In this document: positions 6,328-63,259 of the stretch, piece after piece
Layout of the letters: the number at the start of each line of letters is the position of its first letter
Numbering within the stretch: the first letter of the stretch is position 1
Source of the DNA: Candidatus Woesebacteria bacterium
Lineage (GTDB): Bacteria > Patescibacteriota > Microgenomatia > UBA10105 > UBA927
Assembly: GCA_018062625.1 (NCBI GenBank)
Contig: JAGORV010000003.1
Coordinates: 12,007 to 76,006, forward strand
Length of the DNA stretch: 64,000 nucleotides
Reading direction: 5' to 3'
Notes under the pieces: model-generated
Databases searched by the model: none
What the model saw: the letters and a program-made list of their open reading frames with translations, nothing else
What the model was told of the DNA's origin: nothing
Made by a program: the position numbers and the translations under genes

Positions 6328-8436
6328 TCAGCTCACGGTTTTTGCAATGATCTTTTCTTGGATATTCTTTGGAACCTCTTCATAGTGACTTGGTTCCATG
6401 TAATATGTTGCTCGTCCTTTGGACAAACTACGCAACAATGTTGCATATCCAGAAAGCTCTGCAAGCGGAACTGTAGCTAAAATGACGGTGACCATCCCAC
6501 GCTTCTGCGTTCCTACGACTTGTGCGCGACGACTAGACAAATCACCTATAACATCTCCCATGTATTCATCGGGTGTCGTCACTTCAACCTTCATGATCGG
6601 CTCAAGTATGGTAGGATCAGCATGTTTTACTGCATCCTGAAGAGCCATAGATCCTGCTATTTTGAAAGCAATTTCAGAAGAATCGACGTCGTGATAGGTA
6701 CCATCATAAAGCGTCGCCTTGACGTCTACGAGTGGATATCCTGCTATCACACCATTTTCCAATGCCTCTTTGATACCTTTGCCAACTGCTGGAATGTATT
6801 CATTTGGAATAGCTCCGCCCTTGATAGCGTCCACGTATTCAAATCCTTCTCCTCGGCCTTTCGGTTCAAGTCGGATAAGTGCGTGACCATATTGACCTCG
6901 ACCTCCGGTTTGTCGGATATACTTTCCTTCTCCTTCAGATGCTTTTCGGATAGTTTCTTTGTAGGCAACCTGAGGAGCTCCGACATTTGCTTCTACCTTA
7001 AACTCACGTTTCATACGGTCAACGAGAATTTCGAGATGCAACTCTCCCATACCCCAGATAATAGTTTGGTTGGTCTCTTGGTTACTTTTGATCTTAAATG
7101 TAGGATCTTCTTCGGAAAGTCTTTGGAGTGCATATCCCATTTTTTCTTGGTCATTTTTCGTTTTTGGCTCGATAGCAAGAGAGATAACTGGATCTGGAAA
7201 GGTAATTTTCTCAAGTACTATTGGATTTTCTGGATCACAAAGCGTGTCTCCTGTTATTGTGTCTTTCAATCCGACCACAGCCACGATTTCTCCTGCATAT
7301 GCTTCTCGAATTTCTTCTCGCTGGTTTGCGTGCATCAAAAGCAATCGACCCACACGCTCTTTTGTATCTTTACTAGAATTGTAGGCATATGACCCAGATT
7401 CCAATTTTCCAGAGTATATACGCACATAGGTTAGTTTTCCAACATGTGGATCAATTTGGATTTTGAAGGCAATTCCTGCAAAAGGCGCATCTTTCCCACG
7501 AGGATATGATACTTTTTCTTCTGTGCGTGGATGTGTTCCTTCTACTGGTGGAAGATCAAGTGGTGAAGGCAAGTAGTCAACCACTGCATCCAAAACTGGC
7601 TGAACACCTTTATTTCGGAGACTAGATCCTGCATAGATAGGCACGAGTTTATAGGCGATGACTGCTCGTCGAAGTGCTGCTTTAAGCTCTTCTACAGTAG
7701 GTTCTTCGCCACCAAGGTACTTTTCGAGTAACGCATCATCTGTTTCAGCGATCTTCTCAATAAGGTCTTTTCGACTTTGTTCAACTTCTGCTACAAGATC
7801 TTCTGGAATAACATCTGATTCTTCAAATGATGCACCAAGCTCATCACTACCCCATGTATATGATTTGCGTGTAAGTACGTCTACGATTCCTTTAAATAAA
7901 TTCTCTCGACCTATTGGAACTACCATAACCGCTGGGTTTGCACCAAGACGATCAACGATGGATTGAATAGTTGCACGAAAATCTGCACCAATTTTATCCA
8001 TTTTATTGATAAAGCAAAGTCGTGGCACTCGATATTTGTCTGCTTGATGCCAAACCGTTTCTGACTGTGATTGCACACCTTCTTCTGCATCAAGCACAGT
8101 GATACCTCCATCAAGCACACGAAGAGATCGCTCTACTTCTGCGGTAAAATCTACGTGTCCTGGAGTGTCAATAATATTAAAACGGTAGCCTTTCCAAAAT
8201 GTGGTGGTAGCAGCAGATACAATAGTAATACCTCTTTCCTTTTCCTGTTCCATCCAGTCCATCTGAGTGGTACCTTCATCGATGTCACCAATTTTATAAC
8301 TGCGACCAGTGTAGAAAAGAATACGTTCTGTGGTTGTGGTTTTTCCAGCGTCAATGTGCGCGATGACACCAATATTACGAACCTTATCTAAAGGTACATC
8401 ACGATTTTCTGTAAGAGTTGTTTGTGGTTGGGCCAT
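6328..8436 (-). CDS. fusA: Elongation factor G
   Basis: [20 protein letters not shown] and NKMD motifs; ATG 8436 (MAQPQTT) chosen over the upstream track start. Confidence 0.97.
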
Positions 8437-8462
8437 AAAAAATAAAATCCCGCCCAGCGGGA
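8437..8462 (-). terminator. Terminator-like GC hairpin plus U-rich tract directly abutting the fusA start codon
   Basis: Reverse strand: TCCCGC-TGG-GCGGGA (8462-8448), then TTTTATTTTTT (8447-8437), then ATG. Confidence 0.5.
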
Positions 8463-8490
8463 CAACACATATCAACAAGGCATTATGAGT

Positions 8491-8519
8491 ATTTTATACG
8501 ATTTACGCTACAGTGTCCA
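8491..8519 (-). promoter_or_regulatory. Candidate fusA promoter
   Basis: Reverse strand: TGGACA (8519-8514), 17-nt spacer, TAAAAT (8496-8491). Confidence 0.4.
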
Positions 8520-8596
8520 TAGTCCTCATAATCCTCCAAATTTCATTCAATATATTTGGTATATATATAATAGAAGGATTATAATCAGCCAAATAT

Positions 8597-8803
8597 ATGG
8601 AAACAATTGAAAATTCAGTTCAAGTGCTGCGCCAAAAAATGAAAATAACCCAAGAGCAACTAGCGGATGCTGTAGGTGTCACACGACAAACAATCATAGC
8701 AATAGAGAAGGGATCATACATACCATCATTATTATTAGCATTCCATATTGCTAAATTTTTTCATAAACCTGTAGAATCTATATTTGAAATATGCAAAAAA
8801 TAA
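8597..8803 (+). CDS. Small XRE-family helix-turn-helix transcriptional regulator
   Basis: 68 aa; ITQEQLADAVGVTRQTIIAIEKG is a classic HTH_3 motif. TATAAT at 8580-8585 lies 11 nt before the ATG. Confidence 0.85.
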   Translation: METIENSVQVLRQKMKITQEQLADAVGVTRQTIIAIEKGSYIPSLLLAFHIAKFFHKPVESIFEICKK

Positions 8804-9165
8804 CATCACCATTCAAACGAGAACTATTTCTTTCACTCGCCATCGTAATAGTGTTAACCATATTCACATTACCCACCGGCTTACTCATGCCTAAGTCAAC
8901 TGAAATGTTTTTATTAGTAATCTTTGCACTTATGTTTTTTATCTATCTTGGACTTATTTGGAATGAGCATGCTAACGATGAACGAGAACACGCCCATCAA
9001 CTCACTGCGGGGAGAGTGTCATTTTTTTCAGGAACAACCATACTCTGCATCGGGATAATCTTACAAGCGATGACACATAATATAGATCCATGGCTTGTTA
9101 TAACACTTGGAATTATGATACTAACTAAAATACTGATTCGTATTTATACACAAATTACCCAGTAA
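8791..9165 (+). CDS. Small integral membrane protein (4 predicted TM), paired with the XRE regulator
   Basis: Hydrophobic segments; 13-nt overlap with the regulator gene. This pairing is common for small XRE regulators. Confidence 0.6.
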   Translation: MQKITSPFKRELFLSLAIVIVLTIFTLPTGLLMPKSTEMFLLVIFALMFFIYLGLIWNEHANDEREHAHQLTAGRVSFFSGTTILCIGIILQAMTHNIDPWLVITLGIMILTKILIRIYTQITQ

Positions 9166-9174
9166 CACCTCACG

Positions 9175-9194
9175 ATGTCAAGTGTACTTGACAT
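9175..9194. promoter_or_regulatory. 20-bp palindrome ATGTCAAGT-GT-ACTTGACAT (operator or hairpin candidate)
   Basis: Two perfect 9-nt inverted arms read directly; contains TTGACA on both strands. Lies between the XRE/membrane pair and the thioredoxin gene. Confidence 0.5.
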
Positions 9195-9248
9195 TATGCA
9201 ACTTATACCGTACGGTGTGTATATATTAAATATTTTTAAAGGAGGTAT

Positions 9249-9779
9249 ATGAATACAAAACTTTTAGCATTCATAGGTATAATAGCTATTGCAGTTATCG
9301 GTGTTATTTACATGAAATCTTCTCCCGCCACACCAAAAGATGCCATGATGGAAAAAGCGGACTCCACAATAACAGATACCAAAGCAGCAATGGAACTAAA
9401 AAATACAACACCAACTGATGAAACGATGATGAAAAAGGATGAAACAGCACCCACAGACGCTATGCAAAAATCCTCTTCTCGTTATGTCACATATTCTAAA
9501 GATTCATTTGACGCTGCCAAAGACAAAAAACGTGTATATTTCTTCTTTGCGCCTTGGTGCCCAACCTGCGTACCAACCGATAAAGATTTTCAGGCCAATA
9601 TTGATCAGATACCTTCAGATGTAATCGTATTTAAAACAGATTATGATTCTTCTACAGCTCTAAAGAAACAATACGCGGTCACCTACCAACACACATTTGT
9701 ACAGGTAGATGCGACTGGAAAAGAAGTCGTAAAATGGAATGGTGGGCGTATCCCAGAACTTAAAGCGAACATAAAATAA
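9249..9779 (+). CDS. Membrane-anchored thioredoxin-fold protein (CxxC)
   Basis: N-terminal TM/signal anchor; FFFAPWCPTCVP active-site motif; strong SD AAAGGAGG upstream. Confidence 0.8.
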   Translation: MNTKLLAFIGIIAIAVIGVIYMKSSPATPKDAMMEKADSTITDTKAAMELKNTTPTDETMMKKDETAPTDAMQKSSSRYVTYSKDSFDAAKDKKRVYFFFAPWCPTCVPTDKDFQANIDQIPSDVIVFKTDYDSSTALKKQYAVTYQHTFVQVDATGKEVVKWNGGRIPELKANIK

Positions 9780-9784
9780 CGAGT

Positions 9785-11506
9785 ATGTTTATACTTTTAC
9801 TTTTTGCATTTTTAGGGGGGATTGTTACCATCCTGTCTCCATGTATTCTTCCAATTCTCCCCATAGTACTATCCGGAACGCTTACCGGCGGAAAAAAGAA
9901 ACCACTTGGAGTGGTAGCTGGATTTATTCTAAGTTTTACATTTTTTACATTATTTTTGACAACCATTATTAAGCTCACTGGAATCTCCGCTGATGCACTG
10001 CGAACGGTTTCCGTAGTTGTAATCGGTATGTTTGGCATAAGTTTACTTGTGCCCAAATTTCAGATAACAATGGAAAAACTATTCTCACGTCTTGCAACGA
10101 TCGCGCCACAACAAAAACAAAATACCAACCGGCCAGATTTTATCGCAGGTTTTTTTATAGGGCTTTCTCTTGGGCTTATATGGACACCATGTGTAGGACC
10201 TATTTTAGCCTCAATTATTACGCTTGCTGCAACTAGCTCTATAAATGGTGGCGCTATCTTTATAACACTTGCATACTCTCTCGGTACGGCAATTCCTCTT
10301 TTTGCAATCACCTATGGCGGTAGACAACTTCTCACAAGTCATCCATGGTTACTATCACATACCCAATCTATCCAAAAAGCATTTGGCATCCTCATGTTGC
10401 TTGCTTCACTTGGGATATTTTTTAGTTGGGATCGACAGTTTCAGTCATACATACTCAATACGTTCCCCAGTTACGGCGTGGGAATTACAAAACTTGAAGA
10501 CAACGCGCTTGTCAAAAATGAGTTAGACAAATTAAAAAATGCTCCCAAAATCTCTATGGAGGATTTATTACAATCCGATTTAGGTGAGGCTCCCGAATTT
10601 ATTGTGGGCGGCGCGTGGATAAATTCCCCACCGCTACGCTTGGAAAATCTTCGAGGTAACGTTGTGCTTATCGATTTTTGGACATATACCTGCATCAATT
10701 GTATTCGCACGCTCCCATATCTCAAATCATGGTGGAAAAGCTACGAAGATAAAGGACTTATCATAGTAGGCGTGCATACCCCAGAATTCGCATTTGAAAA
10801 AGAAGAACGAAATGTAAAAGCGGCGATTGGCGATTTTGGCATCACCTACCCCGTCATGCAAGATAACAACTACGCCACATGGCAAGCCTACAATAACAGA
10901 TACTGGCCAGCCCACTATCTGATAGATAAAAATGGAAAAATTCGTTATACCCACTTTGGTGAAGGAAAGTATGATGAAACAGAACGCATGATCCAAAAAT
11001 TGCTCAAAGAAACTGGAGCAACCATTTCTGCTACCCCCAACAATCTTCAATATACGATAGAAGCCAACACACACGAAACCTACCTAGGGTACCAACGCAT
11101 GAGTGGCCTTGCTTCACCAGAACAGATAGTCAAAAACAAGCCAACACTTTTTACTACACCAAATACAATCTCTAACAACTCATTTGCTTTAGGTGGTACG
11201 TGGACCATTGGTGCTGAAAGAGCCATGCCACAAAAAGGATCTACGTTGACGTTTTCTTTTGATGCCAAGGAAGTATTTTTAGTCATGCGACCAAATAAAA
11301 TTGGCCAAGCCGGAGGCATCAGGATATATCTTGATGACAAACTAGTTACCGATGGCAATCAAGGGGTTGATGTCCAAAATGGAATTGTAACAATAAACGT
11401 CGATCGTCTATACAAACTCATAAATCTTCCAAAAAGTGGTCCGCATATTCTTAAAATTGAGGTGCTTGATGGGGATATCGAGCTATATGCCTTTACTTTT
11501 GGTTAG
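9785..11506 (+). CDS. DipZ-like fusion: CcdA/DsbD-type thiol-disulfide transporter, thioredoxin-like domain and C-terminal beta domain
   Basis: Membrane-embedded Cys motifs LSPCILPILP and WTPCVGPIL; periplasmic FWTYTCINCIRTLP; ~150-aa C-terminal domain, as in the mycobacterial DipZ architecture. Confidence 0.8.
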   Translation: MFILLLFAFLGGIVTILSPCILPILPIVLSGTLTGGKKKPLGVVAGFILSFTFFTLFLTTIIKLTGISADALRTVSVVVIGMFGISLLVPKFQITMEKLFSRLATIAPQQKQNTNRPDFIAGFFIGLSLGLIWTPCVGPILASIITLAATSSINGGAIFITLAYSLGTAIPLFAITYGGRQLLTSHPWLLSHTQSIQKAFGILMLLASLGIFFSWDRQFQSYILNTFPSYGVGITKLEDNALVKNELDKLKNAPKISMEDLLQSDLGEAPEFIVGGAWINSPPLRLENLRGNVVLIDFWTYTCINCIRTLPYLKSWWKSYEDKGLIIVGVHTPEFAFEKEERNVKAAIGDFGITYPVMQDNNYATWQAYNNRYWPAHYLIDKNGKIRYTHFGEGKYDETERMIQKLLKETGATISATPNNLQYTIEANTHETYLGYQRMSGLASPEQIVKNKPTLFTTPNTISNNSFALGGTWTIGAERAMPQKGSTLTFSFDAKEVFLVMRPNKIGQAGGIRIYLDDKLVTDGNQGVDVQNGIVTINVDRLYKLINLPKSGPHILKIEVLDGDIELYAFTFG

Positions 11507-11526
11507 GGTTACCATACGCTACATAT

Positions 11527-11796
11527 ATGGATGCTATTGTTAAAGTGTTACAGATTTCATTTGTACTATCTCCATTATTTATTACTGGCATTGCACTAGG
11601 CTTACTTCTCAAAAAAGGAATAAAACTTGCTCAAGGATACGCACTTTATTGGTTACTTCTCTCTATTATATTTCTCATTCTGTGGTTGGCAGCATTTGCC
11701 GATAAACAAGCGGGTATCTCAACGCTCTTAATGCTGGGAACATCTGCAAGCAGTGCGTTTTCTATCTATCTCTCGATGAGGAAACAAGACAGATAA
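11527..11796 (+). CDS. Small membrane protein (3 TM), unknown function
   Basis: 89-aa hydrophobic ORF; no recognised motif. Confidence 0.45.
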   Translation: MDAIVKVLQISFVLSPLFITGIALGLLLKKGIKLAQGYALYWLLLSIIFLILWLAAFADKQAGISTLLMLGTSASSAFSIYLSMRKQDR

Positions 11797-11802
11797 AGAA
11801 GT

Positions 11803-13011
11803 TTACTTCAAATCTTTCGTTATTTTATATATCACTCCTGCTTTATCATCTGATACATAGAGTGATCCATCATCGGAGAAACGTAAATCAACGGGACGTC
11901 CAAGCGCCCCTGCTGCGTTTTTCGCACCCATCAACCATCCGCTCATAAAATCTTCTGTGGATTCATATCCACCTTTGCTATCTAGTTTTATTCGCACAAT
12001 CTTATACCCAGTGGGCGTCGACCTATTCCACGATCCATGGTACGCCACAAGTAAATCTCCTCCATATTCTGCTCCCCATGACGCAGGAATAAACGCTAAT
12101 CCTAACGGAGCAGAATGCGCCTGAAGATCTATATACGAAGGTTCGACAGATTTACAATAATCTGACGCTTTTTGCGAACTGTCAAATGTATTATCCCAAA
12201 CATTTTTTCCATAACAATATGGCCAACCAAAATTCTTTCCTTGTGTAACTATATGTATAGTATCTGGTGGTATGTCATCACCAATCAAATCTCTTCCCAT
12301 GTTGGTAGCCCACATGCGAGAATCTATCGGACTCCAAACGAAAAATACCGCATTACGCAAGCCCTGTGCATAGGACGCAAGCTCTGATCCGTCTGGATTA
12401 GCAACATATATAGCAGCTCTGCGGGCATCTTTTTCCTTACACACATTACAGGTTGATCCTATAGATACATAAAGCTTAGAATCTGGCCCAAACCCAATCG
12501 TTCGAGAAAAATGGTTACCACCGCTGGGCAAATCAAAAAGCTTTTTTCCATTGGAAGCGGTATGTGTCACGAGGTTATATTCAAACATTGAGACTTTGTC
12601 TGTTTCTGCAATATATAATTTCTCCTTATGAAAGGCTATCCCGTGTGGTAAATTTAACCCTTCAGCAACAGTCACCACTTTCTCTGCTTCACCATTTTTA
12701 TCTCGATCAATCAACGCAACCACTTTACCGCGTGATGGTTCGCTGACCAAAAGCGTACCCTCAGAATCAAACAAAAGCACACGTGCATTGTTCACATTTT
12801 TTGCATAAATGGATACCGAAAAATCTTGTGGGAGTGATAATGGAATACCAGTAGAATTTTTGGTGGGAGACAACTCGTCGGCAATATTTCCTGAAACTGG
12901 TGCAAATGCAGGGGCTGATCCCCGAAGATTACCATAATAGAATCTACCGATAACAATCGCTCCGATCAGCAAAAGAATCCAAACAACAACACCAATGGTG
13001 CGTTTATTCAT
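11803..13011 (-). CDS. Secreted PQQ-dependent sugar/sorbosone dehydrogenase-family beta-propeller protein
   Basis: N-terminal TM anchor. Motifs GLNLPHGIAF, GSTCNVC, GLRNAV, GKNFGWPYCYG and HSAPLGLAF are typical of the GSDH/sorbosone dehydrogenase family. Confidence 0.7.
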   Translation of the reverse strand: MNKRTIGVVVWILLLIGAIVIGRFYYGNLRGSAPAFAPVSGNIADELSPTKNSTGIPLSLPQDFSVSIYAKNVNNARVLLFDSEGTLLVSEPSRGKVVALIDRDKNGEAEKVVTVAEGLNLPHGIAFHKEKLYIAETDKVSMFEYNLVTHTASNGKKLFDLPSGGNHFSRTIGFGPDSKLYVSIGSTCNVCKEKDARRAAIYVANPDGSELASYAQGLRNAVFFVWSPIDSRMWATNMGRDLIGDDIPPDTIHIVTQGKNFGWPYCYGKNVWDNTFDSSQKASDYCKSVEPSYIDLQAHSAPLGLAFIPASWGAEYGGDLLVAYHGSWNRSTPTGYKIVRIKLDSKGGYESTEDFMSGWLMGAKNAAGALGRPVDLRFSDDGSLYVSDDKAGVIYKITKDLK

Positions 13012-13022
13012 AGGCTATAAGG

Positions 13023-13409
13023 TTATTGAGTTATATCAGGTGGCACAAACATAGTGTCAACATATGCAGAACAGTTTACATCATGCTCAACACGTAGCTG
13101 TGAAACATCTTTAGTTTGATAACGAATCCAACTCACCAGTCGCGTAACAATAGGTGAAATCTGTGACCGCAAGCCTACAGGAATCCTGTTGTGCGCTGCG
13201 TCTACACAAACACCAAGTGATGTAATAATTTGAAATGAAGATACACATTGAACTTCCCGCGCATTTGGATTTGCTTGTACCTGAAATGCAGACACATCTA
13301 GCTCTTTCTGCGTGGCTATATAACAGTTTCGCGATGCGTTTGCGGGAGCAATAATCAACCAACTCGAAATAAACAACAAAATCAATACAATAACGAAGAT
13401 GTACTTCAT
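13023..13409 (-). CDS. Small secreted/anchored protein with 4 Cys, unknown function
   Basis: Signal-anchor MKYIFVIVLILLFISSWLIIAPANA; four cysteines in the mature part; start at 13409 preferred over 13445. Confidence 0.45.
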   Translation of the reverse strand: MKYIFVIVLILLFISSWLIIAPANASRNCYIATQKELDVSAFQVQANPNAREVQCVSSFQIITSLGVCVDAAHNRIPVGLRSQISPIVTRLVSWIRYQTKDVSQLRVEHDVNCSAYVDTMFVPPDITQ

Positions 13410-13454
13410 GTATCCAGTGTGCATGTTTGACGCCATTCGGGTCAAGTAAGCATG

Positions 13455-14516
13455 TTATATCGCAAGTGGAAGTTGCTCTTCAAAATAAGTCAAATCGGGC
13501 TCAGGATTCGCATACTCAAGTGGTGCAGTAACCCGAGGATCATTAAAAACATCTATAACATGTGATACATTCGCGGTCGTCATTCCCTCTTGTTCTAACC
13601 ACGCTCTCCCCCTCGCTCCGAGCACTACCGCAGCCACATCGAGTCCAGCTAGATGATCTCTCCATCCAAAAGGCACACGCCCAAATGGTTTTTTGGTTGT
13701 CTCAATATGTTCCCAATAGTTTGCCGCCAAATCAGCGAGTTCCATAGCTTGCGTCGCAGTTGTTGGTCGTCTGCGCACCATTTGGCTTGCCGCCACGGGA
13801 ATTCGCCGCGCTGACACAACATTGGAATTTTGACCATTAGCCCAAGCATCAGCAAGCTCTTCTCCCACTACAAGATGACCGAGTCTATCTGTACCCTTAA
13901 ACCTTTCTATAATATCCACTTGTGGTGTCCCCTCTGGGGGACGCACCGGAAAAACTCTCGGAAATACTTGAGCCACAATTGCTGCTTTTTTTGCTTTGTA
14001 CGCTTCTGGACTTTCAAAAACTGTTCCTATTAACTGGGTCTTGAGCGTAAAGGGTGTATAGTCTGTCCGAGCGAGCGCTCGAACGCGAGATGCAACTAAT
14101 ATTTTATCTTTCCAAGACGGTTCTATCATAGGATGACTTATAAGCAGCTCGTCACCAGCAAATCGCAAAAACATTGCCCAGTCATCCCCTAATCGTTGCG
14201 GTTCTTTTTCGAGTGGTTTTAGGTACTCTTTACGAAGCACTCGCCTCATAACATTTCCGAGCGTAGGGCTCAGGCTTACTGATTGAATTAGATGTCCTTT
14301 CGGACCATTTTCTGGATCTATGAGAGGTTTTACTTTTCGCGGATCCTCGAGTGCACTCTGTATCTCCCAATCAAGCCACCCAGGTTGAGGGTAACGTATC
14401 TCTTCCTTTATTGGGACATATCTTGGAATATGAAACTCATACAATGCAGTCGCAAGAGCTCCAAGTCCTAATAATCCTAAAAATTGTCTTCTGGTAATTT
14501 TTTCTTTTCCAGCCAT
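13455..14516 (-). CDS. Hypothetical exported protein with twin-arginine (Tat) signal
   Basis: N-terminus KITRRQFLGLLGLGALATA matches (S/T)RRxFL plus an h-region; the rest has no Cys and no motif I recognise. Confidence 0.55.
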   Translation of the reverse strand: MAGKEKITRRQFLGLLGLGALATALYEFHIPRYVPIKEEIRYPQPGWLDWEIQSALEDPRKVKPLIDPENGPKGHLIQSVSLSPTLGNVMRRVLRKEYLKPLEKEPQRLGDDWAMFLRFAGDELLISHPMIEPSWKDKILVASRVRALARTDYTPFTLKTQLIGTVFESPEAYKAKKAAIVAQVFPRVFPVRPPEGTPQVDIIERFKGTDRLGHLVVGEELADAWANGQNSNVVSARRIPVAASQMVRRRPTTATQAMELADLAANYWEHIETTKKPFGRVPFGWRDHLAGLDVAAVVLGARGRAWLEQEGMTTANVSHVIDVFNDPRVTAPLEYANPEPDLTYFEEQLPLAI

Positions 14517-14552
14517 TGTAGGAGTATACTAAAATGCAAAATTTGGAACAAA

Positions 14553-15155
14553 CTAACCATCTAAACTACGCCAAAGAATTCGAGAAGCATACGTGCGGTA
14601 GGGCGACCATTTTTTCACTATTTTTTCCATTTGCTTGACGGTCGGCTCACTTTTAAACCCATACAGTTTTTGCAATCCGCGTCGCAGTCCTAAATCACCA
14701 TAAGAAAATATATCTGGGCGACCTAGGGCAAACATCAGAAACATTTCCGCAGTCCAACGGCCTACACCATGAATAGTGGTTAGCACAGCTATTACCTCTT
14801 CATCGGACAAAGAAGGAAGCCTCGTAAATACAACTGTTTTCGATTGGACTGCTTCCGCTATAGCTTTTATATATTTTACTTTTGACCATGAAACGCCGAC
14901 ATCGCGAATCTGCTGATCAGACAGCGCAAGTATAGCTTTTGCGCTAATACGCCCATTAGGAAAAAGCTTTTTGAATCGCCGAAAAATAGTATCCCCTGCT
15001 TTGATAGACAGCTGTTGACTGGTAATAGACTCCACTAAATCCACAAACGGATTTGTAGACACGGAAAGCGTCATGTCTGCAATGAGATGAAAATGACGAG
15101 CGAGGATTGGATCAACAGAAGAAAAATGCTTTTCTATGGCCGACTTCTTTACCAT
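14553..15155 (-). CDS. alkA: HhH-GPD DNA glycosylase (3-methyladenine DNA glycosylase II type, core domain only)
   Basis: [32 protein letters not shown] helix-hairpin-helix/GPD motif with catalytic Asp; start overlaps the rpsG stop by 7 nt. Confidence 0.8.
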
Positions 15156-15622
15156 TTAAAGTGTGCAAACGCTTTGTTAGCATCAGCCATACGAAGGACT
15201 GTGTCACGTTTCTTAATTGCTTCTCCTGTGTTTTTTGATGCATCAAGAAGCTCTACAGCCAACTTTTCCGCAAATGTATGGAATTCTTTGTTTGATCGTT
15301 TTTTGGCAAAATCCACTATCCATCGGATAGCCAAAGACATACGTCGATCACCACGGACTTCGGTAGGTACTTGATACGATGCTCCACCCACTCGACGAGA
15401 TCGTACTTCAATCTTAGGTCCTACGTTGGAAAGTGCCAATTCAAAAACTTTGATTGGATCTTCACCTTTTGCTTTGATGAGATCGAATGCTTTGTAGACC
15501 AAGCTCTCGGCTATAGTCTTTTTACCGTCGATCATGACACGATTTACAAATCTCGTCACAAGACGATTTCCGAAAATCGGATCTGGCAATAATACTTTGG
15601 TATATGTTTTTTTACTTCTCAT
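15149..15622 (-). CDS. rpsG: 30S ribosomal protein S7
   Basis: Canonical S7 sequence (DPIFGN.LVTRFVN..M.DGKK). Confidence 0.95.
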
Positions 15623-33463: not shown

Positions 33464-34171
33464 TTATATATGTTTTAATCGAGCCTTCACATTTAGCCGA
33501 TAAAAATATGTACCAGGTGGCACACATGTCACCACAGTAATATATGAATCGTCGAATTTTTGTTCGAGAGGTGATAAATCGGTCGGCTCTACTACCACTT
33601 TATCATAGACTTCATAATTATATGTTATGCCATCGAATTTGATAATTATATCGTCACCAATCTTAATTGTTGGCAACGTAGCAAATATAGAATGATAATC
33701 CTTCACCCCTTTATAAAATTGTGGCAATGTTGAGTGACCAAAAATGACCGCGTTTCCATACTCTCCCGGAAGACCAGTACCTCCATAATGAATCAAGCTT
33801 TTAGCCAAATCGTCTCCGGCTATCACCACTGTTGCGTCAAATAAATTTAACCTTGGAATAGATAGCGTGTAACTGTTCACTGGGGCTACAACCTTTTTTT
33901 GAGGTTTCGTTGGGTACCAACGATTTGGATCAGAAAGTTCATCGCCTGCTGCTGCCAACACAATTGGTGCGATAGGCCTTGCTGCCAACACATCAGCAAC
34001 AGGGCTAACCGTTGAGGTAAAAAGCGATTGATCAAATGTAAAAAATGAAATAATTGGCCACACGGTCCAACCGATTATAAATATCCCAATTCCCATCATG
34101 ACGTATGACACCATCACGGGTCTGGAAATTGGCTTTTTGGGATATGATTTTACATACTGATACATTGCCAT
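33464..34171 (-). CDS. Sortase family transpeptidase
   Basis: N-terminal TM, catalytic His (IFGHST), VVTCVPPG (TLxTC-type Cys), downstream Arg. Confidence 0.8.
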   Translation of the reverse strand: MAMYQYVKSYPKKPISRPVMVSYVMMGIGIFIIGWTVWPIISFFTFDQSLFTSTVSPVADVLAARPIAPIVLAAAGDELSDPNRWYPTKPQKKVVAPVNSYTLSIPRLNLFDATVVIAGDDLAKSLIHYGGTGLPGEYGNAVIFGHSTLPQFYKGVKDYHSIFATLPTIKIGDDIIIKFDGITYNYEVYDKVVVEPTDLSPLEQKFDDSYITVVTCVPPGTYFYRLNVKARLKHI

Positions 34172-34254: not shown

Positions 34255-36648
34255 TTACTGCACTGCCACTGACAGAGTGATATTTTTTGGATTCACAGGC
34301 AGCCTCGATTGAGATGGAGACAAAGCAAATCGAAACTCCGCTCCAGCAACCCCCACGGTATCCTTAAGAATCGCCGTTGCGGTTTTAACATCCTTACCAG
34401 TTAATTTACTAATCAAACCGCTGTTATCTATCACCGGCAAAGCCACTGCTTTAAGCGTCGCAGTCAAAGTAATCTTCCCATCTTTCTTTACCGATATTCC
34501 ACTGGTGGTCACATCCGCTTGCCCACCTGACAAGGAATACCCCGAGGGCACTTTTGCTGCCACAAGCGATGTGAGAATCGCCTTTACATCTTCATCTCTT
34601 ATAGAGATACCAGAAACAGTGATCGTTACCTTTCCATGGAGCTCTTTTGCTTCTTGATCCAATTCTTGATCAAATATTTTTTCAGATACGGTAGTTTTAA
34701 CAGTTTGATCAATAAGCCGCTCGGCTCCAATTTGTGTTGATAATTCTGTCTTAGCTTTTCCAACTAACTCATCGGTAAGCGCTTTTACCATCCCGTCGTA
34801 ATCTGCTCGAGACACTACGGTAACATCGCGACTTGCGCCACCAGTAAACGCGGCGTCATTGCGAGCTGAAACTGCTGACGCTGCGGTATCTTTAAATACA
34901 AACTCTGTCGACGCTGACATATTACTGTCGCTACCAATCTCAACAGCGGTAACTGCAACGGATTTTTTCCCAAATGTGATAGAACCAATACTCTCACTTG
35001 CGCTTGCCACACTCACTTCCTCATCCAACGTAAAAGATAATCCCTTCGCCACCAAAATAGCACCTTTTTTCAATGTTTTTTCGCTCGTCACCTTGTTATA
35101 TACCGTCACGATTCCCCGTGCGGAATCTCCCACTTTCTTTTTGCCAGTTACAACCGCTGTTTTTTCGCCTGTTATTGATTTTTCTTGTGTACGACCCGGA
35201 ATTATTTTTGTGGCTGAATCCGCAATCGTCGCCACCGGATCTACGGTCACGACAGAAAACTCAGACAACGACACAGGAGCAACGAGAATTGTAACGGTAG
35301 CGTGAGGTACAAAATAATACACAAGCCCACCAATACCCAACAGAAGCAACACTCCAATTAATAACGGTACGGGCACACCAGCTGGTTTTGGCATACGAGA
35401 AAACATGCTACGCACTCCAGACAAGTCAAACTTTGAAATAGCGGGCAATGCAAACTTGAATGCCATTTTTTGCTTTCTTGGAAGAATTTTTACTTCCTCA
35501 TCATCATCTATAACCAACTCTCTTGGCATCACTTTGGCCTTCTGATGCAACTGATGTGACTCTAATACATCTTGGCGTTCAAATCCCAAAGCCTCTGGTG
35601 AGACAACGTGCACGTTTGATTCTTCTTCCTGCCCGTCGACCTCTTCAATTACTTCACCGAGTTCCTTATCCTCTTCTGAAGCTTCCTCGTCACTACCATC
35701 CTCATATTCGTCATCTTCTTCAAAATCATCACCTGGCTCTACTTCTTCACTTTCCAGTGATTGCTCATCCTCCTCACCACTTTCTTCTGAGTTATGTTCT
35801 CCTGTGGTCGGCGGCGTTCGTGTAGGTTGTGCTACAGCAACAGTTGCCTCTGCTGATATATCTCCCTCATCAGTTTCACCTATTTCGGCAGACAACTCTG
35901 ATGCGCCTGAAAGAGATACTGCCTCAAGGAGTTTTTCGGTTGTTATGGTTTCAATCTTTGGAAAATGTAAGAAATTCGCACGTGTTGGCCATGGGTGTTT
36001 CAGCAATCTCCCACGAACTTCATCAAGATTTGCCTCATCTCCTCCATACAGTAGTATTCGAGAGGGCAACACATCGCTATCCTGATAATTTTTTAGCGCT
36101 GTTTCAATTGCCAGTGCTGGATCGCTGACTATATCAATCACTTCTTCACCTACCATAGTCCCAATACGAAAAATGGTAACAGTACCAACGCTTGCAGAGC
36201 ATCCCACCAAAATCATAGAGGGCGGAATTCCTTCTTCTTTTTTAAATAAAAATGCTAATGCTTGAGAAAGTGGTACAAATCCAACCGGTGAAAGCTCGAG
36301 CATTGTAGTAAGTTTTTTCAGATGGGGTCGAATACCCTGCGCTATATTTCCTTCACGAGTCAGATATGCGCCTGGCATACCAAAAACTGTTTTACTTATC
36401 GCACCGTGCGATTTCGCTTTATCCTCTGCGGCGGACAAAAGCCTATCTATCACCGCTATACGAGCATCCCAACTATCCTCAGAAACTTTTCCATGTGCGT
36501 AACTCACAATCTTGGGGATTCCAGAGGGCTCCACAAACCAAGCGGCTACTGCTGCCGCATCCGTATCTAAGAATAAGGAAAAGAAGAAAGTTTTTTGGTC
36601 TTCCTTCTTTCCAAGTAGACCCGAAAATGCATCTGAGAATTTCATCAA
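34255..36648 (-). CDS. Bitopic membrane protein: degenerate actin/Hsp70-fold-like domain, acidic linker, TM and beta-rich ectodomain
   Basis: See findings. Motif order parallels the DnaK NBD in this window; acidic run aa ~255-345; TM PVPLLIGVLLLLGIGGLVYYFV. Confidence 0.5.
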   Translation of the reverse strand: MMKFSDAFSGLLGKKEDQKTFFFSLFLDTDAAAVAAWFVEPSGIPKIVSYAHGKVSEDSWDARIAVIDRLLSAAEDKAKSHGAISKTVFGMPGAYLTREGNIAQGIRPHLKKLTTMLELSPVGFVPLSQALAFLFKKEEGIPPSMILVGCSASVGTVTIFRIGTMVGEEVIDIVSDPALAIETALKNYQDSDVLPSRILLYGGDEANLDEVRGRLLKHPWPTRANFLHFPKIETITTEKLLEAVSLSGASELSAEIGETDEGDISAEATVAVAQPTRTPPTTGEHNSEESGEEDEQSLESEEVEPGDDFEEDDEYEDGSDEEASEEDKELGEVIEEVDGQEEESNVHVVSPEALGFERQDVLESHQLHQKAKVMPRELVIDDDEEVKILPRKQKMAFKFALPAISKFDLSGVRSMFSRMPKPAGVPVPLLIGVLLLLGIGGLVYYFVPHATVTILVAPVSLSEFSVVTVDPVATIADSATKIIPGRTQEKSITGEKTAVVTGKKKVGDSARGIVTVYNKVTSEKTLKKGAILVAKGLSFTLDEEVSVASASESIGSITFGKKSVAVTAVEIGSDSNMSASTEFVFKDTAASAVSARNDAAFTGGASRDVTVVSRADYDGMVKALTDELVGKAKTELSTQIGAERLIDQTVKTTVSEKIFDQELDQEAKELHGKVTITVSGISIRDEDVKAILTSLVAAKVPSGYSLSGGQADVTTSGISVKKDGKITLTATLKAVALPVIDNSGLISKLTGKDVKTATAILKDTVGVAGAEFRFALSPSQSRLPVNPKNITLSVAVQ

Positions 36649-62122: not shown

Positions 62123-62212
62123 GACCTCTTTTTCACCTCTCAAATCCTACTTGTTTTATGCCTCACAATCCTATTGCCAAGAACGTATGTGTTCTTCATA
62201 ATGAGTAAAGAC

Positions 62213-63259
62213 ATGAAAAGAGTTGTTTTTATTATTGTTGGACTGATTACTTTGATTGCTATACCTGCTACTGTCTTTCTTTCCATGCGAAGTCAGGAGT
62301 TACGCAAGCGTGCAGCACCTGCAACAAACATAGCGCTTTCCCCAGCGTCCGTTACAAAAGCTCCAAATGAGGAATTTACCCTTGAGGCAAGGCTCGACAC
62401 AGGAGACAATCAGGTTGTTGCCGCACAGATAAACATCGTCTACGACCCAACCAAACTCGAAGCATTAACCATAAATAATGGTACGCTTTTCCCAAATATT
62501 ATTTCCTCTGGAGTTATCGGAAATGGAACAGCGTCTATTGCAGTGGGCGCTGCAAATACTACGACACCAATCCACGGTACTGGAACTGCAGCGGTAATTA
62601 AATTTAAAGCGCTCAGTTCCACCACAAGCCCTGTCAGTATTCGATTTGCCAATGATACATATGTGGGCGCTCTCGGTGAGGGAAGTGTCAATGTGTTAAT
62701 TGGCTCATCCCCAACTACAGTAATCATCACTGGTGGAAATAATATTTCGGTAACTCCAACAGCTACGCCGTCAGCTACGATAAACCCTACAACCACATTG
62801 ACCCCCACGCTTACCCCTACACAAGGAGCAAGTGATAGCGCCTCCACGTCAGCGGTCACAATAAAAACGCCAACAGTAAATCAGTCCGTTACAACTGATC
62901 AACCTACGATCACAGGAAAAGCTCCCGCTGGATCTGTAGTCACCATCGTGATTCATTCTTCTGAAGAAATCACTGCAACAGTAACTGCAGACGCAAACGG
63001 AAATTGGACCTATACAGTACCTCAACCAATATCAAGTGGTCCACATACGATTGTGGTGGCAGCAAAAGACCCAAGCACAAATCAAACTACCACAGCAACA
63101 CTCGCATTTGTTGTGGCATCAGGAGCTGAAAATGGCGCTTCGGGCAGTGCAATACCTGCGACCGGCGCTGTAGAAAACACATTTCTTTTATTGGGCCTAG
63201 GTATTATATTTATACTTGCGGGGTCATTTGTACCAATGCTGGCTCGCCGACCGTTATGA
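62213..63259 (+). CDS. Cell-surface cohesin-domain protein with Ig-like domain and sortase sorting signal
   Basis: Signal peptide; cohesin-like pattern (AAQINIVYDPTKLEAL...GTAAVIKFKAL); TP linker; Ig-like domain; C-terminal IPATG, a hydrophobic stretch and RR. Start 62213 preferred (alternatives 62201 and 62174). Confidence 0.75.
   Translation: MKRVVFIIVGLITLIAIPATVFLSMRSQELRKRAAPATNIALSPASVTKAPNEEFTLEARLDTGDNQVVAAQINIVYDPTKLEALTINNGTLFPNIISSGVIGNGTASIAVGAANTTTPIHGTGTAAVIKFKALSSTTSPVSIRFANDTYVGALGEGSVNVLIGSSPTTVIITGGNNISVTPTATPSATINPTTTLTPTLTPTQGASDSASTSAVTIKTPTVNQSVTTDQPTITGKAPAGSVVTIVIHSSEEITATVTADANGNWTYTVPQPISSGPHTIVVAAKDPSTNQTTTATLAFVVASGAENGASGSAIPATGAVENTFLLLGLGIIFILAGSFVPMLARRPL

Follow-up and report, generated by a model that had tools for sequence, protein, structure and literature searches.

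What function can be assigned to a DipZ-type thiol-redox protein and a pyrroloquinoline quinone (PQQ)-dependent dehydrogenase that lie side by side in a bacterium which looks like a candidate phyla radiation (CPR) member, with no gene for cytochrome c maturation in view? The question is raised by a 64,000-nucleotide stretch of contig JAGORV010000003.1 (Candidatus Woesebacteria bacterium, assembly GCA_018062625.1), hereafter called the window. In an initial annotation, six of its genes (9249–14516) had been read as a possibly self-contained envelope redox system, in which DipZ and a membrane-anchored thioredoxin supply reductant to the neighbouring gene products. The explanation that we favor, with slightly better than even confidence, is that these genes belong to a lineage-specific accessory island in a CPR-type str operon, and that the island holds two separable extracytoplasmic modules which share a hotspot and a theme rather than a mechanism.

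All open reading frames (ORFs) of at least 100 aa were annotated in the window, except in the ribosomal block at 1–5 kb, and the whole window was submitted to motif and tblastn scans. Related loci are designated by L-numbers and P0035; a metagenome scan with an alignment of the dehydrogenase propeller gave 80 loci and was followed by tblastn, a census of neighbouring ORFs and domain hidden Markov models. A 6.6-kb island (8597–15155) was found to interrupt the str operon between rpsG (15149..15622, minus strand, recognized from its translation and from a Ribosomal_S7 domain in syntenic relatives) and fusA (6328..8436, minus strand, the true start being probably an ATG near 8436, as relatives begin with MAQPQ). 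On the minus strand, rpsL, rpoC and rpoB lie upstream, and fusA is followed by tuf and the S10 operon. The same rpsG-fusA site is occupied by an island in L001, L012, L014, L020, L022 and L032.

The island consists of two convergent transcription units on opposite strands, with 6 nt between their stop codons in the ORF listing. Genes within a unit overlap or are separated by 5–36 nt, with the exception of 83 nt ahead of the anchored-thioredoxin gene. The units extend beyond 9249–14516, since they also include genes for an XRE regulator, a protein of about four transmembrane (TM) segments and an HhH-GPD glycosylase. Every island gene is under purifying selection, the ratio of nonsynonymous to synonymous substitution rates (dN/dS) being 0.04–0.15 against orthologues. 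The six genes initially described are real ORFs and their identities were borne out by Pfam, NCBIfam and PDB searches; their products do carry the anchors, signal peptides, twin-arginine translocation (Tat) signal or TM segments expected of exported or membrane-bound redox-type proteins. What did not hold is the idea of a single co-transcribed cluster: there are two convergent units, the thioredoxin is missing from L001, L012 and L014, and the propeller and DipZ each occur alone elsewhere.

The plus-strand unit encodes a 573-aa fusion of a CcdA domain, a TlpA/ResA-like thioredoxin domain and a Thioredoxin_10 domain (9785..11506). Pfam detected DsbD_TM (E 7e-14), Redoxin/AhpC-TSA (E 5e-13) and Thioredoxin_10 (PF17991, E 7e-33, profile positions 1–142 of 142), and the best-matching structures were the soluble part of Mycobacterium tuberculosis DipZ (2HYX, E 2e-57) and CcdA (5VKV, E 1e-14). 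The thioredoxin domain also matched ResA subfamily models of NCBIfam (E 2e-20). The protein contains exactly four Cys, all kept in six of six relatives: C20 and C136 in the membrane domain, one conserved Cys per half, and C303-x-x-C306 in the thioredoxin domain, where the motif TYTCINCIRT is identical in the six. The C-terminal domain has no Cys. An exact-sequence look-up found no record of this protein, which by all these features is a true DipZ-type protein. In L024 (2776–4515) the DipZ homologue is broken into two ORFs; a frameshift, a pseudogene or faulty assembly may lie behind the split.

The gene for a membrane-anchored WCPTC thioredoxin with a Met-rich linker (9249..9779, plus strand; PF00085, E 1e-7) ends 5 nt ahead of DipZ. 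A homologue, 45% identical, is found at the same position in L029. Together with the XRE and 4-TM genes, the thioredoxin gene is missing from L001, L012 and L014; the three occur here only and partly in L029. Met (7–8 residues), Thr, Pro, Lys and Asp abound in the thioredoxin linker (residues about 25–80), which could bind Cu(I) or scavenge oxidants. After DipZ comes a small protein of 89 aa with three hydrophobic segments (3-TM protein, 11527..11796, plus strand). It is kept after DipZ in L001 (80% identity) and L014 (63–66%), with a dN/dS of 0.05–0.07, and found no family match in Pfam, NCBIfam, PDB, PHROGs or PADLOC.

From this organization, the CcdA domain would pass electrons from a cytoplasmic thioredoxin via its two membrane Cys to the outer, TlpA-like TCINC domain, and in this genome the anchored WCPTC thioredoxin would probably receive them next, as the likely acceptor of DipZ on the outer face. 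By analogy with cytochrome-free streptococci, this first module would most likely serve the general reduction, isomerisation or repair of exported Cys proteins and not cytochrome c maturation. The initial annotation had considered the clients of a CcdA pathway unexplained if the organism has no cytochrome c. This premise is now weaker, because in Streptococcus pneumoniae and S. gordonii, which lack cytochrome c, the supply of surface thioredoxins by a CcdA-type conduit is established (PMC3914529, PMC7034828), so that a DipZ without nearby cytochrome c maturation genes is not anomalous in itself. The general DsbD-to-thioredoxin logic and MsrQ-like conduits are also described (PMC8238504). The DipZ and thioredoxin part is by itself ordinary.

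The minus-strand unit would read on from rpsL-rpsG through the glycosylase and a Tat-exported helical protein to a coupled pair, formed by an exported protein with four Cys (4-Cys protein, 13023..13424 or 13409, minus strand) and the propeller (11803..13011, minus strand). The 4-Cys protein has a signal peptide and four invariant Cys, including a CxxC. A 140-aa version starting with TTG at 13445 is probably too long, relatives having 128–133 aa. The family is small, with only 12 clusters among 5.8 billion proteins, and the protein had no match in Pfam, NCBIfam, PDB sequence and profile searches, PHROGs or PADLOC. Its gene stands directly upstream of the propeller gene in eight of eight contexts seen (window, L001, L005, L007/L008, L014, L021, L028 and the P0035 locus), with gaps of 0–41 nt and 23–71% identity. 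On this conservation of gene order, the 4-Cys/propeller pairing appears as the one firm functional linkage of the region, and the 4-Cys protein as a putative dedicated upstream partner of the propeller.

The propeller is a predicted membrane-anchored, six-bladed PQQ-dependent dehydrogenase of AA12/GSDH type, with matches to GSDH, DUF7133 and TrAA12 domains. Among PDB entries it matches CcPDH, the AA12 PQQ dehydrogenase of Coprinopsis, best (6JT5/6JWF, E 7e-14), and the alignment brings the catalytic His and the PQQ ligands of the two into correspondence. The PQQ-binding set of CcPDH comprises R273, H363, R430, N431, H539, H560, W563, N564 and R621. Seven of these nine residues align with R77, H167, H299, H325, W328, N329 and R372 of the propeller, and R219 and N220 are the probable equivalents of R430 and N431. 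All nine PQQ positions and C188, C191, C266 and C286 are conserved in 66–71 of 71 homologues. A further small ORF adjoins the propeller in L020, which lacks DipZ: it encodes 99 aa with 8 Cys (10041–10340), overlaps the propeller stop codon and has no Pfam match.

Genes for heme lyase, cytochrome c maturation and PQQ synthesis were found neither in the window nor in about 100 related loci, and to this extent the corresponding statement of the initial annotation stands. The dehydrogenase would have to use scavenged PQQ. A recent preprint reports 247 CPR genomes with PQQ six-bladed beta propellers (PQQ-6-beta) that carry Cys pairs, one or two in number, while PQQ biosynthesis is lacking; it proposes hosts as the source of the PQQ (bioRxiv 10.64898/2026.07.10.737718, Voutsinos et al. 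2026). An explanation for the absence of pqq genes thus exists already, and the propeller belongs to a known kind.

In the clade whose fusA is 80–85% identical, a recurring gene order was observed: rpsG, HhH-GPD, a variable slot, propeller, convergent DipZ and fusA. The slot beside the propeller, within the island as well as away from it, contains a cupredoxin with an amicyanin-like loop, with or without a second GSDH propeller, in L014, L022, L027, L068/L073 and L078. It contains an MsrQ-like membrane protein (PF01794, Ferric_reduct) in L029, L033, L035 and L053, and a Pterin_4a dehydratase in L022, L027, L032, L060 and L068. The 4-Cys protein fills it in the eight contexts named above, and the Tat-signal protein in this narrow lineage only. 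LigT-like, 8-Cys, 116-aa and 201-aa genes are other rpsG-fusA occupants in relatives, and the content of the site differs in nearly every one of them. The candidate electron-partner genes lie at L014:2664–4334, L022:7972–10001, L068:11056–11805, L078:1511–3241 and L029:1714–2319, and the cupredoxin loop of sister genomes reads C-x-P-H-P-x-M.

Associations with cupredoxin and pterin dehydratase genes are seen repeatedly, in varying gene orders and away from the str operon as well, and are for this reason better functional evidence than an adjacency of single origin such as that of DipZ. The variable slot suggests that the propeller probably lies at the centre of a small electron-transfer unit of the cell surface, with a partner that changes from genome to genome. 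In the available text of the CPR propeller preprint, the words "cupredoxin" and "thioredoxin" have no match, and there is no mention of a 4-Cys partner, a str island or DipZ, MsrQ-like or pterin dehydratase neighbours (bioRxiv 10.64898/2026.07.10.737718).

The occupant of the slot upstream of the 4-Cys gene is a 353-aa all-helical protein (13455..14516, minus strand) with the twin-arginine motif ITRRQFLGL. Its signal, I-T-R-R-Q-F-L-G followed by a hydrophobic stretch and then A-T-A, fits the S/T-R-R-x-F-L-K pattern with an AxA site, and RR-x-F is present in 11 of 15 family members. Profile searches run on 13023–13409 and 13455–14516 returned no family for either gene, and confirmed the Tat signal in the latter. 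Beyond this signal the protein had no match in Pfam, NCBIfam, PDB, PHROGs or PADLOC; the PDB profile search matched only the Tat signal peptides of AioB and NapA. The Tat pathway is reported in some CPR classes (PMC9166423).

The Tat-signal family is rare: a word-indexed search gave 6 clusters, to which a diverse alignment added one new protein only, and an exhaustive search gave 17 representatives at E ≤1e-3 among 1.84 billion proteins. In the C-terminal half, R205, D210, R211, H214, E269, D287 and D293 are invariant, and D201 and E272 are present in at least 90% of members. AlphaFold2 with 15 diverse sequences produced a confident all-helical model (predicted local distance difference test score, pLDDT, 88; predicted template modelling score 0.86), the run with only 6 close sequences being unusable (pLDDT 41). 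This model had no fold match in PDB or BFVD.

In L014 (4446–5513) and L012 (3909–4970) the slot is filled by homologues that are only 27–31% identical, where fusA is 96% and 93% identical, respectively. The flanking island genes are 64–81% identical there (DipZ 77% and propeller 72% in L014; DipZ 64% and no propeller in L012). This divergence against a conserved fusA and conserved flanks indicates that the slot was refilled with divergent homologues, and from sequence comparison it looks like a cassette-like replacement of one gene. Distant relatives of the Tat-signal protein adjoin RuvABC (RuvA/RuvC), toxin-antitoxin (BrnT/CopG), EamA or NUDIX genes or a PF01794 protein, and not DipZ or a propeller. 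A requirement of the Tat-signal protein for the propeller or DipZ was ruled out by the contexts of L012, L018 and L019.

The strongest competitor of the two-module explanation, although we consider it unlikely, is the one proposed at the outset: a self-contained envelope system in which DipZ and the thioredoxin specifically feed the propeller, the 4-Cys protein and the Tat-signal protein. A co-occurrence analysis bears directly on it. DipZ is convergent to the propeller in 11 of the 14 informative loci of the island clade (window, L001, L014, L021, L024, L025, L027, L029, L030, L032 and the P0035 locus) and is absent from L020, L022 and L057 despite the presence of a propeller. In L012, DipZ and the Tat-signal protein are kept without propeller, 4-Cys or 3-TM gene. 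At 64 propeller loci outside the island, of which 23 have at least 2.5 kb on both sides, domain models detected no gene for CcdA, a TlpA-like protein or the DipZ C-terminal domain. As a set, the genes are not co-conserved. Since the adjacency is confined to one syntenic clade, it would amount to a single origin, with independent losses, and DipZ and the propeller each occur without the other.

The cysteines bear on this competitor as well. The propeller and the 4-Cys protein each have four conserved Cys including a CxxC, as thiol clients might, but the propeller Cys are invariant across the 71 homologues and in the 64 loci without DipZ: the CxxC and the second Cys pair are a family feature and not an adaptation to DipZ. 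The propeller CxxC was accordingly ruled out as a DipZ-specific client site. The Tat-signal protein of this genome, also proposed as a client, contains no Cys at all, which excludes it as a thiol client. Homologues of the CINC thioredoxin domain of DipZ are found in SOQ1 and NHLRC2, joined there to six-bladed propellers (bioRxiv 10.1101/2021.03.16.435614), but these propellers are NHL-type scaffolds and not PQQ enzymes. Finally, the genes are on opposite strands and the thioredoxin is not kept even in the nearest relative.

A more conventional role is in our opinion quite improbable: DipZ and the thioredoxin would act in cytochrome c maturation by System II, for which another part of the genome would encode ccsBA and the apocytochromes. 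It would agree with the ResA subfamily matches mentioned above, DipZ/CcdA and ResA/CcsX constituting the reductant arm of System II (PMC3781833), and some CPR genomes do carry respiratory modules (PMC9166423). However, the CPR oxidases reported there are quinol oxidases (cytochrome o, bd) that need no c-type cytochrome (PMC9166423). The annotated genes and the motif and tblastn scans of the window revealed no CxxCH cytochrome, TatA-like motif, methionine sulfoxide reductase (Msr), cupredoxin or cytochrome c maturation gene. Among the annotated window genes there is no TatC, ResB/ResC, CcsA/CcsB or respiratory gene. The motif scan found no credible CxxCH protein, the sole in-gene CxxCH being located in a zinc-ribbon-like ORF, and neighbour censuses of about 100 related loci were equally devoid of these System II genes. 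No trxA or trxB was seen in the window either. The rest of the window encodes housekeeping functions and shows traits typical of CPR (DUF5671, DUF5680, a sortase, two YceG genes and a short alanyl-tRNA synthetase of 656 aa), in agreement with the CPR-like organism suspected initially.

Just as doubtful is the proposal that the Tat-signal protein is a new exported cofactor- or metal-handling partner for CPR surface PQQ dehydrogenases, either a scavenger or chaperone of PQQ or of lanthanide/calcium, or a new electron carrier. The protein is interchangeable, in the variable slot, with cupredoxins and MsrQ-like cytochromes. Under this hypothesis, the Tat-signal and 4-Cys proteins may together make up a minimal unit for extracytoplasmic electron transfer, with expression from the ribosomal str operon.

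A copper-centred role would be analogous to TlpA-Sco/CoxB or ScsB/ScsC: DipZ and the Met-rich thioredoxin would maintain the Cys ligands of copper proteins in the reduced state, or would handle Cu(I), to the benefit of cupredoxins to which the propeller passes its electrons. An amicyanin-like cupredoxin and a second GSDH propeller are indeed present in the same island of L014, L022 and L027, cupredoxins stand beside propellers in L068 and L078, the thioredoxin linker is rich in Met here, and single-domain cupredoxins are reported in Patescibacteriota (PMC12931201). We nevertheless hold this role to be very improbable, as the window contains no cupredoxin, L022, L068 and L078 have a cupredoxin without DipZ, and type-1 copper sites contain only one Cys and offer no disulfide for reduction. 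The least probable reading, that the rpsG-fusA junction is merely a permissive insertion site whose occupants are unrelated beyond the 4-Cys/propeller pair, would account for its changing content and for the divergence of the Tat-signal slot, but nearly all occupants are exported redox-type proteins, and away from the str operon, too, the propeller is accompanied by genes for cupredoxin, pterin dehydratase and HhH-GPD.

Several points weigh against the two-module explanation. The DipZ-propeller adjacency in 11 of 14 loci could mean a real functional tie, which a view of single origin followed by losses underestimates. The window has no Msr, peroxiredoxin or DsbA/VKOR gene, and no substrate of DipZ and the thioredoxin could be named. 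It also lacks the cupredoxin, MsrQ-like and pterin dehydratase genes that hint at electron transfer in relatives, and offers no candidate for the acceptor of the propeller. Cytochrome c maturation genes could lie elsewhere in the genome, beyond the window. Co-transcription was deduced solely from gene spacing. Like co-transcription, the direction of electron flow, the roles of the partners and any link between the two modules are what we infer from the sequences. The domain assignments, the conserved catalytic and redox positions, the gene order, the distribution among relatives and the purifying selection are observed.

The remaining island genes are located at its two ends. The plus-strand unit begins with an XRE-type helix-turn-helix regulator (8597..8803; HTH_3, E 1e-13), with a 13-nt overlap to the gene for the 4-TM protein (8791..9165, plus strand), a small membrane protein recognized by its hydrophobic segments, for which Pfam and NCBIfam gave only sub-threshold family matches. 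The first island gene of the minus-strand unit encodes the HhH-GPD DNA glycosylase (14553..15155; E 1e-18). Its position is kept in L001, L005, L007, L012, L014, L020 and others. It overlaps the rpsG stop by 7 nt, and a DNA repair gene inside the str operon is unusual; HhH-GPD also adjoins the propeller outside the str operon in L060 and L068/L073. Promoter-like sites were found ahead of the XRE gene (8556–8585) and ahead of fusA (8519–8491). The latter belongs to a segment (8437–8519, minus strand) where it is followed by a GC-rich hairpin (8463–8447) and a T-run to 8437, ending at the probable fusA start; this could be a leader, an attenuator or a read-through terminator. Searches of PHROGs and PADLOC gave no support for a phage or defence origin of the island.

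Other observations concern the window and the related loci at large. No RNA family, not even a tRNA, was detected in the window (1–64000) by Rfam at gathering thresholds. A 797-aa protein with a weak Baseplate_J match (34255–36648, minus strand) adjoins the sortase (33464–34171, minus strand), and a cohesin/Ig-domain surface protein is located at the window end (62174–63259, plus strand); all three may be cell-surface or host-contact proteins. The 3.8-kb contig CAZXHY010000063.1, which carries L008/L011, is filed as an "uncultured Gammaproteobacteria" metagenome-assembled genome. Its genes are 64–99% identical to those of the CPR-like window, and the filing is probably a binning error.

DipZ, the thioredoxin and the propeller are known kinds of proteins; the novelty lies in how the island is laid out and in two families, that of the 4-Cys partner and the rare one of the Tat-signal protein. 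CPR bacteria are generally regarded as largely fermentative symbionts that possess very little redox machinery. The island, which is conserved and probably expressed with ribosomal genes, sets a surface PQQ dehydrogenase with exchangeable candidate electron partners beside a thiol-reductant conduit, and suggests that redox chemistry at the cell surface, the place of contact with the host, is an investment made by at least one lineage of CPR. The Tat-signal family, structurally unmatched, is now open to testing.

Comparison with known systems places each module. DipZ shares with M. tuberculosis DipZ (Rv2874; 2HYX/5CYY) the three-part build, with two Cys in the CcdA domain, a C-I-N-C thioredoxin domain and a Thioredoxin_10 domain. 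In contrast, the host here is CPR-like without visible cytochrome c genes, with an additional WCPTC thioredoxin upstream and a 3-TM protein downstream. To our knowledge, the physiological substrate of DipZ is not established in M. tuberculosis. The streptococcal CcdA-Etrx-MsrAB2 pathway (PMC3914529, PMC7034828) resembles the first module in combining a CcdA conduit with an anchored extracellular thioredoxin in the absence of cytochrome c, so that the puzzle of the missing clients has a known class of answer; it differs in that no msrA or msrB was found in the island, the window or the related loci, and in that CcdA is fused here to its thioredoxin domain. The thioredoxin domains of SOQ1 (7DJJ, E 7e-24) and NHLRC2 (6GC1, E 8e-24) are the next-closest solved relatives of that of DipZ and share its C-I-N-C. 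SOQ1 has been proposed to receive electrons from CCDA (bioRxiv 10.1101/2021.03.16.435614). These two proteins are, however, fusions, whereas separate genes on opposite strands are found here; their propellers lack the PQQ residues, and their C-terminal domain has a redox Cys pair where that of DipZ has no Cys.

The propeller itself resembles CcPDH, TrAA12 and the CPR PQQ-6-beta propellers (bioRxiv 10.64898/2026.07.10.737718) in its six blades, nine PQQ positions, Cys pairs and extracytoplasmic location, and shares with the last the lack of PQQ biosynthesis genes, here within the window. For diderm bacteria, the preprint puts forward cytochrome c4 or c551 as the acceptor; the window has no gene of this kind. 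For these recently reported propellers, the 4-Cys family provides a defined partner protein.

In other bacteria, amicyanin pairs with methylamine dehydrogenase, and MsrP with MsrQ. The window has no such carrier: the Tat-signal and 4-Cys proteins fill the slot, neither with a recognisable redox cofactor motif. In sister genomes, the propeller stands beside an amicyanin-like cupredoxin or a PF01794 MsrQ-like protein, an arrangement that fits the pairing of a dehydrogenase with an electron carrier and points to the cupredoxin and the MsrQ-like protein as candidate electron acceptors of CPR PQQ propellers.

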